DNA of 53,577 bases from a virus (lineage: Duplodnaviria > Heunggongvirae > Uroviricota > Caudoviricetes), in IMG/VR virus record IMGVR_UViG_2541047877_000006. One strand, given 5' to 3'. A program made the translations under genes and the position numbers. Below are positions 5,088 to 42,643 of this stretch, in pieces. Under the pieces are notes generated by a model, which did no database searches, had not been told where the DNA came from, and worked only from the letters and a program-made list of their open reading frames with translations. Each line of letters begins with the position of its first letter. Position 1 is the stretch's first letter.

Positions 5088-5264
5088 AATGTTATTTCCT
5101 CCGGTTCACGGAATGAGTATTTATTCATAAAAAAACTAATTTTTATTAACATAGGTTTCACGGTGGCAAAAAATGCCAGTAGGGTTAATCAACAACTTAT
5201 GCAAATTGAAATAACTACTTAATGAATAACTAATCGTATACATTGTGGTTTACATTTTGTATAT

Positions 5265-6197
5265 TCATTGGCAGCAAACAATCTCTTTATATGCTTCTTC
5301 TACCATGTCGAATACTTCCGGCCTGTAATAAAAAAATTCATTGCTACCATCAAATTTTACAGTAAAGTTAATTTTATAATTGCTGAAATATTTATGCATC
5401 GTGCTTTCTAATTCTTGAACTTTTCCTGTTGGTCCTTCCCACGTCTTCACGATATGCAAATCATGGATTCTAACACCTGCTTTATGCGCGCTATTTAATA
5501 CCATATTTCTTCGCCTGTTCTCACTAACGCTCACGCCAATTTTCATCATCGTTGGCACTTCCAGATCATCAACCATGATGTAAATTTTTCCATACTCATG
5601 ACTAAGGAAACCGCTTTTCGCGCATTTCGGGCAGCCTTGCCCCTTTTTAAGGTTACTGGGTATAGCAGACCACTCATGACCGCAGACATTACAGCGGCAT
5701 AATACTTTTGTTGCGTTATTAACAATTTCGCCTATAACTTCAACATCAGGATTAACCTTCGCAATAGTCGCGATCTGTTCTTCGTGTGTTAAGGTTCTGA
5801 TTTGTGCTAGTTTTAAAGATTTACACTTCGGGCAGCCGTACCCACTTTTAAGGTTGTAAGGACTAACAGACCACTCATGATCACAAACTTTGCAGCGGCA
5901 CGGGACTTTATCCCTGGCGTTATTAACTTCCCCCAATACTTCAATATTTGGGTTAACTTTGGCTATATCTGCAATATGTTCTTCGTGTGTTAATGTTTTT
6001 TTTAACCTTGCGCATTTAGGGCAACCGTTCCCGTGTTTAAGGTTGTTAGGAGTAGCAGACCACTCATGATCACAAACTTTGCAGCGGCATGATACTTTTG
6101 TTGTGCTGCAGGTTACTTCCTCCAACACTTCAATATTTGGGTTAACTTTCTCAATAGCTGCAATTTGCTCTTCATGCGTTAACTTGCGTCTACCCAT
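5265..6197 (-). CDS. triple zinc-ribbon repeat protein with C-terminal T5orf172 (GIY-YIG-like) domain
   Basis: Three ~45-aa repeats LTHEE.IA.I.KVNP.IEV...CRCKVC.HEWS...GCPKC; C-terminal KIYIMV...KIGVS...ENRRR. Confidence 0.6.
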   Translation of the reverse strand: MGRRKLTHEEQIAAIEKVNPNIEVLEEVTCSTTKVSCRCKVCDHEWSATPNNLKHGNGCPKCARLKKTLTHEEHIADIAKVNPNIEVLGEVNNARDKVPCRCKVCDHEWSVSPYNLKSGYGCPKCKSLKLAQIRTLTHEEQIATIAKVNPDVEVIGEIVNNATKVLCRCNVCGHEWSAIPSNLKKGQGCPKCAKSGFLSHEYGKIYIMVDDLEVPTMMKIGVSVSENRRRNMVLNSAHKAGVRIHDLHIVKTWEGPTGKVQELESTMHKYFSNYKINFTVKFDGSNEFFYYRPEVFDMVEEAYKEIVCCQ

Positions 6198-6451: not shown

Positions 6452-6583
6452 TTTAAAATCCTCTCTAAAACGCTCTATAACGAGCTAAACCGCTAAAGAT
6501 ATGAATCGTAGCACCATGCGTGTTTTAGCTCGCTGGTGAGGTTGTTTTGTGGGTAATTTTGGATTTTTGCGGATCGTGGTTGG

Positions 6584-7630
6584 TCAAAGAGCGCCTGCGC
6601 GTGTGTCGCGTAGCGTTTTTGGTTTAAGCAGGAAATCAAGTGTCGCTGTGAAGCCATTGCCGAAGTAAAAATCTGAAGCCGTGTTTTTGAATGTTTCGAA
6701 GTAGGCGACAAAGCCGTTAATGCTTTTGTCTTTCAGGTAGTCAGTGAACGCATAGATCTTGCGTTCAAGATCCCGATCCAGTTCGGCAGGTGGTAACAGG
6801 CCGTCAAACGTGCTGTTAAATGCTTCCACCACGTCGGCAGCGTTTACAGTAGCTGATAGCTTGCGCCATTGCTCAGCGTCAGCCAGATACCCATCGAATT
6901 TAGTTACCCGGCAAATGTTGATAGGCTTAGGTGTTCCACCACGGCTGCGCCATTGCGTCAAAGCCCATTCGATTACTAATGTGATCTCATCCTCCGTGTA
7001 TGCCTTACGTGTTTTTGTTTCTGTCAGTAGTTCGATAAATGGCTTAGCATCACGACTCTTGCATCCAGCTTTGTCGTTGTAGAAGGCCAAGCAACGCAAT
7101 GCCGCTTCGTTTACGCCATCCTGATTGACCGTTTTTTGTCCATTTTCGCTAATACACGAAGTGTATATATCTTTTTCTCTTTCTTCTTCTACTTCTAATT
7201 CATGACCCTTTCCTGACCCGGTCATGACCCTATCATGACCTTTTGGTGTTGGATTGATTAACTTCTCTAATTTTAATTGCTCCTTCGCTGTGTTTATAGC
7301 AGCCCTATAAGCGCTCTTAGAAGTCATTGATTGGTCCAGCCTTTTTAATAACTTTAGGCAAGTTATGTGGCCTTGAGAACATTCGAACAAACCAATTTCG
7401 ATGAAGTATTTCATCATTTCTTCTATACGTTTTTCAGTAGATCCGACGTTTCGCGCAATGATTCTCGCGTCATGTCGTAGGTCAAAATTCAGATTGTGCT
7501 GATCTACGTCATAAGTTATTAGTTCGAGGCAATACCAATAAAGCCCGTACCCTTCCAGGCCATAATCTAACAAAACGTTTTGAAGTTTTTCATCGCGGTT
7601 CGCATCGCTGTCATGCTTAAACCACTTCAT
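6584..7630 (-). CDS. phage replisome organizer / replication initiation protein
   Basis: 348 aa; N-terminal MKWFKHDSDANRDEKL...GLEGYGLYWYCLE motif; same operon as helicase. Confidence 0.7.
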   Translation of the reverse strand: MKWFKHDSDANRDEKLQNVLLDYGLEGYGLYWYCLELITYDVDQHNLNFDLRHDARIIARNVGSTEKRIEEMMKYFIEIGLFECSQGHITCLKLLKRLDQSMTSKSAYRAAINTAKEQLKLEKLINPTPKGHDRVMTGSGKGHELEVEEEREKDIYTSCISENGQKTVNQDGVNEAALRCLAFYNDKAGCKSRDAKPFIELLTETKTRKAYTEDEITLVIEWALTQWRSRGGTPKPINICRVTKFDGYLADAEQWRKLSATVNAADVVEAFNSTFDGLLPPAELDRDLERKIYAFTDYLKDKSINGFVAYFETFKNTASDFYFGNGFTATLDFLLKPKTLRDTRAGAL

Positions 7631-7633
7631 AGA

Positions 7634-7891
7634 TCATCCCTCCGGCAACATCACTACATAGACATCACTGAATGCATCAAGACGACAAACAAATCCTTTA
7701 TCCATTAACGCGGCGAAGGCATCATGTACCGTATGAACAGGAAGTTCACACATTGCGGCTACTTCTTTGCGTGATGCATCATGTACCCGTCCTTTGTTAT
7801 CTGCCTTTTCAGCCAGAGCCATTAAGACAAGTTTTTGAATCGGGCTATTAAGTTTTACGTTCCATGCTTTACTAATCATGTTCATACTCAT
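7634..7891 (-). CDS. winged-helix/HTH DNA-binding protein in Cro position
   Basis: 85 aa from ATG 7891 (AGGAG SD); first gene of leftward operon, divergent from cI. Confidence 0.4.
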   Translation of the reverse strand: MSMNMISKAWNVKLNSPIQKLVLMALAEKADNKGRVHDASRKEVAAMCELPVHTVHDAFAALMDKGFVCRLDAFSDVYVVMLPEG

Positions 7892-8105
7892 CGCATTTTC
7901 TCCTATGGTTAGAGTGAACGCGCGGGCGGGCATCCCATTAGCATTAGATAGCAGTGACTGACCGCTCAACAGATCCCGCCGTTGCGTGATATTTGTTTTT
8001 CGCTTCGCAGCGACACCGGATTTTTAAAGAGCATAAGGTAAGTGCCTTTTTGTGCCTTCAGTTATCTTTTTCCTTGCGTCTTTGCAAGTATGGCCTTACC
8101 TTGTC

Positions 8106-8163
8106 TGCAAGTTTACAAAATGGAATTTTAAGATCAAGGCTTAAAATACACGTTTTGTGACTT
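8106..8163. promoter_or_regulatory. nested imperfect palindrome in cI upstream region (operator-like)
   Basis: TGCAAGTTTACAAAA...TTTTAAG atcaagg CTTAAAA...TTTTGTGACTTGCA; arms match 14/15. Confidence 0.4.
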
Positions 8164-8196
8164 GCATCAAACTTTTTGAGGTTATAGGGTAGCGAC

Positions 8197-8844
8197 ATGA
8201 AAACAAAATGGTATGACTTAGCAAAGCAGCTCATGCGGGCGCAGGGCATGAGCCAGGATTCACTCGCGGATCGTATGGGGATAACTAAAGGCGGCCTGTC
8301 ACACTGGCTGAACGGTCGCCGAGAGCCAAATCTTGAAGATATTGCGCGGATTATGCGCGAGCTTGGTCGTCGGCAGTTTACTGTTACACATGATGGCATG
8401 GTCATTGATGATTCTGTTTCTAATACACTTCAGGCCGTGCCGCCGCGTGATTTAGGTAGTTACCCGGTTATTGACTGGAAGGACACAGTAAACAATATGG
8501 ATGACGCAAGGCGTTCAGCATTACGACACGTTACGACTAGCGTTATTTGTTCAGATGACAGTTACTGGCTGGTTGCCAAAGGTGAATCAATGAACGCGCC
8601 GCAGGGGTTGAGCATCCCGGCGGGGACGATGATACTTGTGGACCCGCACGCGCCAGCTATTGACGGCAAACTGGTTATAGCCCAGCTTGAGGAAGGGCAG
8701 ATACCGACGTTTAAACAGTTGATTATTGATGGAGGTCAAAGGCTTTTACGTTCGCTCAATCCGCTGTATCCGCCAATCCCTATGAATCCAGAATCAAAAA
8801 TTATAGGCGTGGTGGTTGATGCGAAGATCGTAAACCTGCCATAA
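8197..8844 (+). CDS. cI: CI-like repressor (HTH-XRE plus S24 LexA-like peptidase)
   Basis: 215 aa; N-terminal HTH (MSQDSLADRMGITKGGLSHWLNGRREP); C-terminal GESM serine and lysine of S24 autopeptidases. Confidence 0.8.
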   Translation: MKTKWYDLAKQLMRAQGMSQDSLADRMGITKGGLSHWLNGRREPNLEDIARIMRELGRRQFTVTHDGMVIDDSVSNTLQAVPPRDLGSYPVIDWKDTVNNMDDARRSALRHVTTSVICSDDSYWLVAKGESMNAPQGLSIPAGTMILVDPHAPAIDGKLVIAQLEEGQIPTFKQLIIDGGQRLLRSLNPLYPPIPMNPESKIIGVVVDAKIVNLP

Positions 8845-8849
8845 ACATT

Positions 8850-8875
8850 AGCCGCCGAATGGCGGCTTTTCTTTG
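8850..8875 (+). terminator. rho-independent terminator after cI
   Basis: AGCCGCC gaat GGCGGCT hairpin followed by TTTCTTTG. Confidence 0.6.
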
Positions 8876-8956
8876 CCTGGGAAACACCAAAACGTAAACA
8901 GAAAACGTTATTTATTATTTAAATATCAATGGCATATAAAATATTTTAAAAAAGTA

Positions 8957-8996
8957 TACAAAATGGATTGACTCGATGTTTTACGGGGCGTATATT
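8957..8996 (+). promoter_or_regulatory. pL-like sigma70 promoter with upstream TACAAAATGG element
   Basis: -35 TTGACT (8968-8973), 17-nt spacer, -10 TATATT (8991-8996); TTGACTCG/CGAGTCAA inverted repeat brackets it. Confidence 0.55.
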
Positions 8997-9250
8997 GCGA
9001 GTCAAAGGAAGGGCGCAGGTAACAAAAGCAACTTCCTGGCACTTTAAAAATCAGGCTTAACACCTTGTCAACCGTGGAGTAACTCCCCGATGGGGGACCG
9101 AAAGCGGCACTGATAACAAGGCGCATGGGGTGTTTAAAGCGTTACATCCCCCACGAAACCGCACGCAAGGCGACGAGTCAGCTTGCTTGGAGTGAGCAAG
9201 GTCACGCCGGGAACGGCGATGATTGCGGGATTAGTTGAAAGATGTTAAGC

Positions 9251-9288
9251 CGCTCATTAACAATCTGGTCAGCCGCTGGAAGTGCGGC
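9251..9288 (+). promoter_or_regulatory. nutL-like site (boxA plus boxB hairpin)
   Basis: boxA CGCTCATTAACAA (cf. CGCTCTTTAACAA), 8-nt gap, boxB GCCGC-tggaagt-GCGGC stem-loop. Confidence 0.5.
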
Positions 9289-9344
9289 AATTAACGAAGA
9301 TGATTTTTTATTAAGTATCATCAAGGATATACGGAGATCAGATT

Positions 9345-9635
9345 ATGAGCGTTACAATTATATATGGTAAATGTGATAGCAAAATGAATGCCAGGGAACG
9401 CAGAAGGATAAAAAGAGAAAACGAAAGAAAATCATCACCTGCAATCAATAAAACAGACAATGTGGATAAAGCTATTCGATTTGCAAACGAGGAAAGATGC
9501 AAACCAAATAGCATTAAAGAACGTCGCAAAGGATCAGTAAAATGGTATACGGAAAATGAAAGCGGCAGCTACTACCACGCAACGCAACCACGCCATTTAG
9601 GGGAAAAACCCCTGGATAAAGTCCGCTACCATTAA
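9345..9635 (+). CDS. N-like antitermination protein
   Basis: Arginine-rich motif MNARERRRIKRENERK (from ATG 9384) like lambdoid N; directly downstream of nutL-like site. Confidence 0.5.
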   Translation: MSVTIIYGKCDSKMNARERRRIKRENERKSSPAINKTDNVDKAIRFANEERCKPNSIKERRKGSVKWYTENESGSYYHATQPRHLGEKPLDKVRYH

Positions 9636-11136: not shown

Positions 11137-11361
11137 ATGATTGAAGAAAAAGAAGTAGACAAGGAAATTCCTGACGGTTGTGATGAGCTTATTTGTTTTG
11201 ACGGCGGCCTGTATGAGTTCGAAACGTCTGCAGGGTGGCACGATAAATGGCCTAAGCCTACTCGCCAGGAATTAAGCGACCGTAAATCATTCGGCGAAGA
11301 TGCCGAACGGCTGGCTAATAACAAATGGCTTGATAAGTTAATTGCGGAGGGTGGCAAATGA
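11137..11361 (+). CDS. hypothetical protein (74 aa)
   Basis: ORF; acidic; no domain recognised. Confidence 0.45.
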   Translation: MIEEKEVDKEIPDGCDELICFDGGLYEFETSAGWHDKWPKPTRQELSDRKSFGEDAERLANNKWLDKLIAEGGK

Positions 11362-13007: not shown

Positions 13008-13106
13008 CAGCGTGATTGCGATCACATAAATATACATTTTGTATTGTGATTGCATATCCGTTTTGTAAGCCGAAATCAAAAGGTTTACGGTGCGGAGGAA
13101 AACAAG

Positions 13107-16404: not shown

Positions 16405-16420
16405 TGTGATGCGGATCACA
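16405..16420. promoter_or_regulatory. CRP-box-like palindrome
   Basis: TGTGATGCGGATCACA matches TGTGA-N6-TCACA; flanked by inverted TACAAAATGG copies. Confidence 0.4.
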
Positions 16421-21660: not shown

Positions 21661-21774
21661 GGCGTTGGACAACCATAAATGTGATCTGTATCACAATGTA
21701 TACGAAATGGCATTGTTTCGACAGTGCCATTTTGTTATATATAAGCCACGGAAAGACGGAGGGGAGGCAAGAAG

Positions 21775-41783: not shown

Positions 41784-42032
41784 CTATAAGTTATCACGCA
41801 GATAATTAACGCCCTTATCAGTGACGAATGAATGGTTAACCTGGTTTTCATCCGTCATGATGATGAATAACTTTTCATGTAGGTATTTCGCTTTCGGGTA
41901 CAGCGTTAAACAGACCTGGTACAGTATCCCGCGCTCAATCAGCAAATCAATAAATTCGTGTTCATGATAACCGATGAGGCGGGCGGCCTGTTTCAACGTG
42001 TACACATAATCACCGTGATTGCGCCGCCCCAT
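41784..42032 (-). CDS. HTH-like DNA-binding protein (82 aa), third gene of cassette
   Basis: YTLKQAARLIGYHEHEFIDLLIERGIL resembles HTH; AAGG SD; 9 nt after gene B stop. Confidence 0.45.
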   Translation of the reverse strand: MGRRNHGDYVYTLKQAARLIGYHEHEFIDLLIERGILYQVCLTLYPKAKYLHEKLFIIMTDENQVNHSFVTDKGVNYLRDNL

Positions 42033-42041
42033 GTTGCCGCC

Positions 42042-42389
42042 TTATTTATCGAATGCTAAAAGGTTATCGATACAGAAATCTTTCGCCGCTTTTTCGTATT
42101 CGCGTTTTGCTTCTGGATCGTCAGCCGGGAAACCTTTTGCGTGTATTTCACCAGGGCAAGACTGGTCCATAGAATCTGCATAATAAGCAGTGAAGCTACC
42201 ATTAATATCTTTCGGGTTCATATCTTCCACCTCATCAACTATATGTACCGGATTAGCAGCATATTTCACTGGATGGCCTAAACTACATTCAAGAATCCTG
42301 CCTTCTTCCAGGGCTACTTCTTCGCTATCAAATAATCCGAAACACTCCTTGCTACCACTTAACCACACATCAAGACTGTATTTTTTCAT
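42042..42389 (-). CDS. acidic protein (115 aa), second gene of cassette
   Basis: ATG 42389 with GAGG SD; acidic; overlaps first gene by 20 nt. Confidence 0.45.
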   Translation of the reverse strand: MKKYSLDVWLSGSKECFGLFDSEEVALEEGRILECSLGHPVKYAANPVHIVDEVEDMNPKDINGSFTAYYADSMDQSCPGEIHAKGFPADDPEAKREYEKAAKDFCIDNLLAFDK

Positions 42390-42558
42390 TTTTGTTAGCC
42401 TCATATTTGACAGGTTCGATCTGGTATCCCAAAAGGCGGTCATCCTCAGCAAGTAAAAGCGCGTCAACCAATGCTTCACCCTCGTCGTCATACAGGGCGA
42501 TAACCTTTTCCCTACCGTCTGTCATGAATACCGTCAACTTCCATAGCTTTTCAGTCAT
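42370..42558 (-). CDS. small acidic protein (62 aa), first gene of cassette
   Basis: MTEKLWKLTVFMTDGREKVIALYDDEGEALVDALLLAEDDRLLGYQIEPVKYEANKNEKIQS; GGAGGTG SD. Confidence 0.45.
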   Translation of the reverse strand: MTEKLWKLTVFMTDGREKVIALYDDEGEALVDALLLAEDDRLLGYQIEPVKYEANKNEKIQS

Positions 42559-42604
42559 AACGCACCTCCGCGCCATTTTGTTAACTATGCTTCCGTTTGA
42601 GTAA

Positions 42605-42643
42605 AATATACATATTGTAAAAACCGCGATCAATCCATTTTGG
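42605..42643 (-). promoter_or_regulatory. sigma70-like promoter for three-gene cassette
   Basis: Minus strand: CCAAAATGGA then -35 TTGATC, 17-nt spacer, -10 TATATT; same layout as pL-like promoter. Confidence 0.5.

Follow-up and report, generated by a model that had tools for sequence, protein, structure and literature searches.

Two inverted operator-type sites form a probable leftward operator region of the CI-like repressor in a coliphage of the mEpimmI group

Phage lambda offers the closest described parallel to the locus considered here. Its operator OR2 lies at −42 of PRM, the position from which CI bound to OR2 activates this promoter, and overlaps the first 3 nt of the PR −35 element; the cI mRNA transcribed from PRM is leaderless. 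In phage P1 (C1 operators) and mycobacteriophage L5 (gp71 stoperators), one repressor motif is found at many places in the genome, often in pairs. Phages of the mEpimmI group, which are reported to be as frequent as lambdoid phages among human faecal isolates, have N/nut-dependent early operons, in which the repressor gene has nutL upstream of it and the N-like gp17 has nutR1, and nutR2 comes after a methyltransferase gene (PMC11893012). Supplied from a plasmid, Rep021, the repressor homologue of mEp021, prevents infection with six phages of this group, i.e. it confers immunity, and the operators and early promoters of the mEpimmI repressor are not described in that study (PMC11893012).

The DNA analysed here (the window; IMG/VR record IMGVR_UViG_2541047877_000006, 53,577 nucleotides) belongs to a temperate coliphage of the mEpimmI group with approximately 90% identity to mEp515 and mEp021; its region 6500–9500 is 90–93% identical to mEp515, MagusPhagus, mEp010 and mEp021. 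A first-pass annotation had drawn attention to a 58-bp nested palindrome at 8106–8163, in the gap between a gene in the position of cro and the cI-like gene, here called rep. Comparison with related sequences leads us to consider it likely that this palindrome is the leftward operator region of the repressor Rep, composed of two inverted 17-bp pseudo-dyad sites. The features of the gap and its two flanking genes are:

7634–7891, minus strand: first gene of the leftward operon, coding for an 85-aa protein with a replication-initiator N-terminal domain (phrog_4617, E = 3.9e-23)
8083–8089, plus strand: third copy of TGCAAGT, less conserved
8106–8166, no strand: whole imperfect palindrome centred at 8136, with outer arms TGCAAGT/ACTTGCA, middle arms TTACAAAATG/CGTTTTGTGA and inner arms TTTTAAG/CTTAAAA
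8111–8127, plus strand: left operator-type site OL1, GTTTACAAAATGGAATT, second-best match to the position weight matrix (PWM) in the window (24.7 bits)
8114–8123: word within the left arm, TACAAAATGG
8126–8146, no strand: inner arms and loop, variable except for the loop sequence TCAAG, which is the complement of the PL −35
8146–8162, minus strand: right, degenerate operator-type site OL2, AGTCACAAAACGTGTAT, sequence invariant across variants
8151–8159, minus strand: word within the right arm, CACAAAACG
8197–8844, plus strand: rep, CI-like repressor of 215 aa with HTH_3 and Peptidase_S24 domains (Pfam)

The closest solved structure to Rep is that of lambda CI (3BDN, E = 1.4e-20), and the match covers both domains. 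The 215-aa form is supported by the homologues from many genera, all of which begin at the upstream M(K/N)xKW; the mEp021 GenBank record (position 11218, against 8197 here) starts the repressor at an internal Met, giving 198 aa. A search with Rep peptides against GTDB genome contigs gave no confirmed relative. The first codons of rep (8199–8215; MKTKW, ATGAAAACAAAATGG) form an operator-like word, GAAAACAAAATGGTATG, of 12.1 bits, which is also present in mEp021 and in the 55%-identical relative L050 described below; it may reflect coding constraint or, possibly, an autoregulatory site at +11. On the other side of the gap, the gene in the position of cro proved not to be Cro-like, as its product has the initiator domain listed above and no Pfam match, HTH_3 included. 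It is followed by a gene for a 348-aa replication protein of the Lin1244_N type with an O-like C-terminal part (6584–7630, minus strand), and the replication initiator appears to be split into the 85-aa N-terminal DNA-binding part and this 348-aa protein. A Cro-like partner was found neither adjoining rep nor among ten small early or accessory ORFs (Pfam, no HTH match). Further along the leftward early operon, 5265–6197 (minus strand) encodes a 310-aa protein that combines three treble-clef zinc ribbons in tandem (DUF4379) with a CapR homology domain and a MUG113 (GIY-YIG-like) region; an operator-type site at 5248–5264 lies just past the stop codon of this gene.

The gap of about 300 bp reported in the first pass is present (7892–8196) and is accounted for by the leader of the leftward early transcript, which carries nutL (PMC11893012) and continues into the replication operon. 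The palindrome also exists, but its right end had been set too early: the right outer arm ACTTGCA runs to 8166, 3 nt beyond 8163. A repeat search returned two arms of 27 nt (8106–8132 and 8140–8166) that are 70% complementary when read ungapped and are separated by 7 nt; the gapped reading, TGCAAGTTTACAAAATG...CGTTTTGTGACTTGCA, gives a better match with two one-base gaps. The single copy of the recurrent element claimed to lie inside the palindrome is found at 8114–8124 (TACAAAATGGA). The inner arms are likewise in place (TTTTAAG at 8126–8132, CTTAAAA at 8140–8146), but they are not a conserved part of the structure, since they vary among relatives. As to the outer arms, TGCAAGT occurs three times within 85 bp (8083–8089, 8106–8112 and 8160–8166) out of seven times in the window; two of these copies are the outer arms, and only their AAGT part is common to other operator copies.

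To describe conservation, 28 distinct versions of the rep upstream region were aligned from 44 close IMG/VR loci (Rep 90–100% identical) and mEp021; a second alignment comprised 20 versions of 8100–8172, including the relative with 55% Rep identity. Both arm cores are invariant or almost so in the 20–28 distinct variants, whereas the inner arms, the flanks and most of the loop vary. In each arm, it is the outer two thirds whose sequence is conserved; in the alignment of 8100–8172, the strings TGCAAGTTTACA(A/G/T)AATG and C(G/A)TTTTGTGACTTG are invariant or almost so. OL1, whose core is invariant or almost so in 20 variants, overlaps the spacer and the −10 of the predicted leftward promoter PL and is centred at 8119, or −78 relative to the rep ATG. 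OL2 is centred at 8154, 43 bp before this ATG, so that the two centres are 35 bp apart. It is a weak site as judged by the window-derived PWM (less than 8 bits; 8.9 bits in mEp021), and it may be conserved for another reason, namely an overlapping CRP-like site or the rep −35. At the position of a third operator, over the rep −10, the window contains no match. The inner arms were also considered as operator half-sites of the P22 type (TTAAG) and rejected, since they are not conserved among homoimmune phages.

The 58-bp nested palindrome of the first-pass annotation is not, as such, the functional unit: there are two separate 17-bp operator-type sites, and the inner arms are lineage-specific. 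The nested appearance stems from the AAGT flank outside each site and from AT-rich inner words that are complementary by chance in this lineage. Its remark that the region does not resemble three tandem 17-bp operators is borne out by two inverted sites centred at 8119 and 8154, a distance of 35 bp compared with 23–24 bp in lambda. Its suggestion of a candidate operator set is very probably correct, given a dyadic motif that is conserved, over-represented and travels with rep homologues, and which we infer to be bound by Rep.

The motif in the left arm is widely distributed. A 17-bp matrix built from fifteen copies has the consensus GTWTACAAAATGGAWWC with partial two-fold symmetry (TAC ... G(T/G)A, GTA ... 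TAC). The element TACAAAATGGA occurs 16 times in the window with at most one mismatch (1.4 expected). Words related to the motif are the most over-represented 8- to 11-mers of the window, and ACAAAATG, CATTTTGTA, ATACAAAATG and CATTTTGTATA are its commonest 8-, 9-, 10- and 11-mers, respectively. The PWM scan found 22 sites of at least 12 bits, compared with 2.5 expected in Markov-shuffled sequence; 11 of the 22 are located where a crude ORF map leaves the window uncovered, which is 9.4% of its length (p = 1.3e-6). In mEp021, 13 of 17 sites of at least 12 bits are intergenic by reading of the annotation, and the copies are syntenic. Besides nut boxA, the motif is the only sequence common to both regions flanking rep. 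Sites are often paired, either 24–25 bp apart (13030/13054, 21698/21723, 37970/37995) or 34–37 bp apart, and their orientation is mixed within each direction of transcription (six plus and four minus in the rightward early region). A full-text literature search for the motif words matched only primers and Gateway sites, and to our knowledge the motif does not fit TyrR, LexA, DnaA or IHF sites.

Dispersed copies lie at 1042, 3967, 5248, 9633, 13030/13054, 14033, 16384/16448, 21698/21723, 22779, 37970/37995, 40583, 40974/41046, 42569/42606 and 51418/51452/51481. Most of them are intergenic, and most have syntenic counterparts in mEp021; in the tail-gene region, several flank embedded accessory genes that run leftward. 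One leftward two-gene unit (41784–42491, minus strand) has as its second product a protein with an antirepressor KilAC (ANT) domain (E = 1.1e-6). It is preceded by operator-type sites at 42569–42585 and 42606–42622, and two strong sites likewise precede the ANT gene of L050, an arrangement that suggests an antirepressor under repressor control. A CI-type repressor with twenty-odd dispersed sites is unusual.

More distant Rep homologues provide the link between motif and repressor. The Rep of L050 is 55% identical, and its recognition helix, TKGGLSHW, is the same. Both arms can be recognised in this locus (GTTTACGAATTGGTAAA, AGCGCCATTTTGTGACT); their centres, 35 bp from each other, are placed at −78 and −43 relative to the ATG, exactly as in the window. 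In four loci with 38–51% Rep identity, namely Enterobacter L052, Serratia L054, Tatumella L056 and the IMG/VR contig L048, a compact cro–rep intergenic region is filled by three 17-mers of the type GTATAC-N5-GTATAC. The first of these operators is centred near −75 and the middle one at −42/−43, and the third covers the −10 (TATAAT, TATGAT or TATTAT) 6 nt before the ATG. The half-site GTATAC and the −42/−43 position of the middle operator are shared with the window, as is the unusual right half of this operator, GTGTCT or GTGACT (relatives' ATATACATTTTGTGTCT compared with ATACACGTTTTGTGACT in the right arm of the window). The differences are that in these relatives the intergenic region measures about 105 bp, a Cro-like HTH_3 gene is present and the third operator lies over the rep −10, whereas the clade of the window has lost the third site and has nutL and about 200 bp inserted. 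A homologue from Vibrio, whose recognition helix differs, has three copies of a shifted version of the motif, TATTACAnAATGGAWAT. L050, L052 and the locus L053 carry further copies of the motif immediately after rep. The replication modules of these loci differ, with a prophage remnant in L052, a helicase in L053 and L054, and a lambda-O-type gene in L056. Because the motif is found in loci with different replication modules or in prophage remnants, it follows the repressor gene and not the neighbours of this gene. From these comparisons we conclude that the motif represents the operator of the Rep repressor family, that the palindrome arms represent homologues of the first and second operators of the relatives' three-operator arrays, and that the third operator would have been lost in the mEpimmI clade and L050.

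The strongest competing explanation is that the motif is bound mainly by another DNA-binding protein of the phage, such as an unrecognised Cro analogue, the initiator-domain protein encoded immediately to the left or a regulator of accessory (moron) genes; the palindrome would then serve as the control site of that protein. Conservation within the motif peaks in its central 11 bp, with an A-tract included; lambda-type operators are contacted at their outer positions, and the central, A-tract-rich core could point to a different binding mode or to a different protein. The dispersal of sites over the genome, the tail-gene region included, and the location of the palindrome directly upstream of the replication operon are also in line with such a protein. 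However, the motif travels with rep homologues across loci in which the replication module is another one or absent, and the sites of the relatives occupy the classical operator positions between cro and cI. A Cro protein, where present, would share the sites of CI and would mostly be a second binder, not a replacement for Rep. We therefore regard recognition mainly by another protein as unlikely.

Promoters are predicted around both arms. The relevant features, from left to right, are:

8001–8012, minus strand: probable nutL boxB hairpin, CGCTGCGAAGCG, inferred by comparison with nutR2, CGCTGAAATGCG
8021–8033, minus strand: nutL boxA, TGCTCTTTAAAAA, in the PL leader
8110–8115, minus strand: predicted PL −10, TAAACT, separated from the −35 by 16 nt and unchanged in every variant, L050 included
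8132–8137, minus strand: predicted PL −35, TTGATC (TTGACC or TTGAAC in relatives), with CTTGA invariant
8156–8171, no strand: CRP-consensus-like site, TGTGACTTGCATCAAA, 9 of 10 core positions, overlapping OL2 and the predicted rep −35
8162–8167, plus strand: predicted −35 of the rep promoter, TTGCAT (TTGCAT/TTGAAT, with the same spacing in L050)
8183–8188, plus strand: predicted −10 of the rep promoter, TATAGG, 15-nt spacer, 8 nt to the ATG
8850–8867: rep terminator, upstream of PR
8954–8970, plus strand: PR operator-type site, GTATACAAAATGGATTG, 23 bits, its last 3 nt being the first 3 nt of the −35
8968–8996, plus strand: predicted rightward early promoter PR, TTGACT-17-TATATT, a strong match (10/12) in the promoter scan, upstream of nutR1 and the N-like gene
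8979–8995, plus strand: possible weak second PR operator, TTTTACGGGGCGTATAT, which overlaps the −10 and lies 25 bp from the first site

The predicted start of PL lies near 8102–8104 and is directed leftwards, in agreement with nutL (PMC11893012). The −35 hexamer sits in the loop of the palindrome, and the arrangement TTGAYC-16-TAAACT is conserved (TTGAAC in L050). PL is absent from the promoter-scan list because it scores 8/12 to the sigma-70 consensus, with a threshold of 9/12. An alternative PL, TTGATG-16-TATTTT, was rejected, as its spacer becomes 14 nt in mEp021. The boxA word of nutL recurs at nutR2 (about 16480) and a similar word is found at nutR1 (9039–9055), both on the plus strand. 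For rep, L050 repeats TATAGG, 8 nt and the ATG despite a different intervening sequence. This spacing of the −10 (8 nt here and in L050; 6 nt in other relatives) indicates that the rep mRNA is probably leaderless or nearly so. TAAAAT (8142–8147) was rejected as a rep −10, since it is not conserved. At PR, AAAAAGTATACAAAATG in the first operator-type site is invariant in 35 variants; in the possible second site, (T/C)AC-N5-GTATA is kept in the variants, and the PWM scan does not find this site. An 8-bp inverted repeat bracketing the PR core, TTGACTCG/CGAGTCAA (8968–8975 and 8998–9005), is probably incidental, as it varies among relatives.

Based on this arrangement, we propose the following hypothetical switch, in which (i) a Rep dimer on the strong left site (8111–8127) would cover the spacer and the −10 of PL; (ii) PL being blocked, transcription of nutL and the replication operon would be off in lysogens; (iii) a second Rep dimer would bind the weak right site (8146–8162), 43 bp upstream of the rep start and abutting the rep −35; (iv) this right-site dimer would probably act cooperatively with the left one and would stimulate, or at least tune, transcription of rep; and (v) Rep on 8954–8970, over the PR −35, would repress the rightward early operon.

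The CRP-like site at the right arm adds a further element. Its TGTGAC and TCAA are conserved in the 20-version alignment, and its centre lies approximately 60.5–61.5 bp upstream of the predicted PL start and 47.5 bp from the G before the −10. In class I CRP-dependent promoters, CRP is located near −61.5, comparable to the position of TGTGA-N6-TCA.A before the predicted PL start. TGTGAT-N4-ATCACA palindromes are found at 13011–13026, 16405–16420 and 21680–21695; two are perfect (none expected) and one has a single mismatch, which gives three with at most one mismatch compared with 0.16 expected. The mEp021 record annotates the equivalent of the 16405 palindrome as a predicted terminator (TERM_4). 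All four CRP-like centres lie 46.5–47.5 bp upstream of the G in the string CCATTTTG followed by TAnnnT of an operator copy. Early promoters could thus be both CRP-assisted and Rep-controlled, as far as the predicted starts hold; alternatively, a phage protein could be what binds the CRP-like palindromes. A wider scheme would have Rep govern about 20 genome-wide operators, with PL and three early promoters (near 13078, 16472 and 21747) sharing a module of fixed geometry in which a CRP-consensus site and an operator over the −10 are 44 bp apart; we put it forward tentatively and consider it doubtful. If such a Rep regulon exists, it would include the promoter of the antirepressor operon and promoters of accessory genes inside the tail region. 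If both proposals hold, the lysis–lysogeny circuit would be tied directly to cAMP–CRP, with Rep and CRP opposed at the right arm.

The same promoters raise the question of whether the palindrome could be a by-product of two divergent core promoters and a CRP site that lacks an operator function of its own, the recurrent word being an element common to a class of phage promoters. At PL and several other sites, the opposite strand of the motif does read CCATTTTG followed by the −10-like TAnnnT, and the fixed distance of the CRP-consensus palindromes in four places is compatible with this idea. The TG, however, is one position off the extended −10 rule, and the right-arm hexamer TGACTT is no −10. 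Moreover, the copies at 9633, 5248, 16384 and 40583 drive no gene or point antisense, and the motif at PR lies upstream of the −35 in the opposite orientation. The motif of the relatives is clearly dyad-symmetric (GTATAC-N5-GTATAC), which is typical of a site bound by a dimer. By analogy with PR, we also asked whether the motif could serve promoters as an upstream UP or −35 element, a reading that fails at most copies. A promoter element as the origin of the palindrome is consequently quite improbable.

An RNA or DNA hairpin, be it a terminator, an attenuator, a processing site or a cruciform, is suggested by the strong predicted single-strand fold of the palindrome (plus strand, −24.1 kcal/mol with z = −5.65; minus strand, −17.4 kcal/mol with z = −3.3). 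The alignment argues against it. Covariation on the predicted hairpin is 0.071 compared with 0.067 in shuffles, and 84 of 500 shuffles reach at least the observed value; pairs of the inner stem are broken in 7–16 of the 20 variants, and twelve pairs never vary. The inner arms vary without compensatory change, so that a hairpin role is unsupported. There is no T-run past the stem and no terminator was called at the palindrome; both predicted divergent starts lie outside it, which would leave it untranscribed. Rfam gave no match in 8100–8170, and at a permissive threshold the two sub-threshold matches are both outside the palindrome. One sub-threshold match, at 8842–8966 (Aggregatibacter sRNA 82, 30.6 bits against a gathering threshold of 51.4, E = 0.032), is probably driven by the rep terminator hairpin that it spans. 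We consider a hairpin function highly improbable.

Taken alone, the palindrome exceeds chance only modestly. Its gapped self-complement score is 15; dinucleotide shuffling of the 303-bp intergenic region yields 10.2 ± 2.0, with 3% of the shuffles reaching the observed value, and an ungapped test on the intergenic region did not single it out. Its significance stems from conservation and from the motif contained in the arms, not from self-complementarity. A chance origin in an AT-rich intergenic region, with which these statistics would still agree, is the least probable explanation of all, as the arm cores are conserved at identical positions down to 55% Rep identity and the motif that they contain is strongly over-represented.

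In summary, the reading of the palindrome as the leftward operator region of Rep assigns candidate coordinates to the operators, PL, PR and the rep promoter. It also points to a CI-like repressor family in several enterobacterial genera with a common GTATAC-N5-GTATAC operator and a lambda-like −42/−43 geometry. If anything here exceeds a routine switch, it could be the dispersed sites and the CRP-like modules. The region is probably an operator region of a known kind, that of a CI-type switch, which PMC11893012 does not describe for the mEpimmI group. Its architecture would be set apart by two operators 35 bp apart and by an unusually wide dispersal of the repressor motif.

With lambda OR and OL, the locus shares a repressor homologous to CI, with HTH and S24-like domains (3BDN), and 17-bp pseudo-dyads in which one half is consensus-like and the other weaker. 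As in lambda, one site lies over a predicted lytic promoter core and another 42–43 bp before the start of the repressor gene, and the site at PR overlaps the TTG of the −35 TTGACT in the manner of OR2. The rep mRNA is probably leaderless, like that of lambda cI, and the early operons are N/nut-dependent (PMC11893012). In contrast to lambda, there are two sites here instead of three, and their centres are 35 bp apart instead of 23–24 bp. Transcription of rep diverges from that of PL and not of PR, and the gene sits between these two promoters in rightward orientation; it has no adjacent Cro, and the replication genes belong to the leftward operon. The operators are unrelated in sequence to those of lambda, and about 20 more sites are scattered over the genome. 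In this last respect the phage resembles the P1 C1 and L5 gp71 systems, with which it shares many copies of the motif beyond the immunity region, often paired. The repressors of those systems are, however, unrelated to Rep, the sites here are partly dyad-symmetric, and stoperators are oriented with transcription, whereas the orientation here is mixed.
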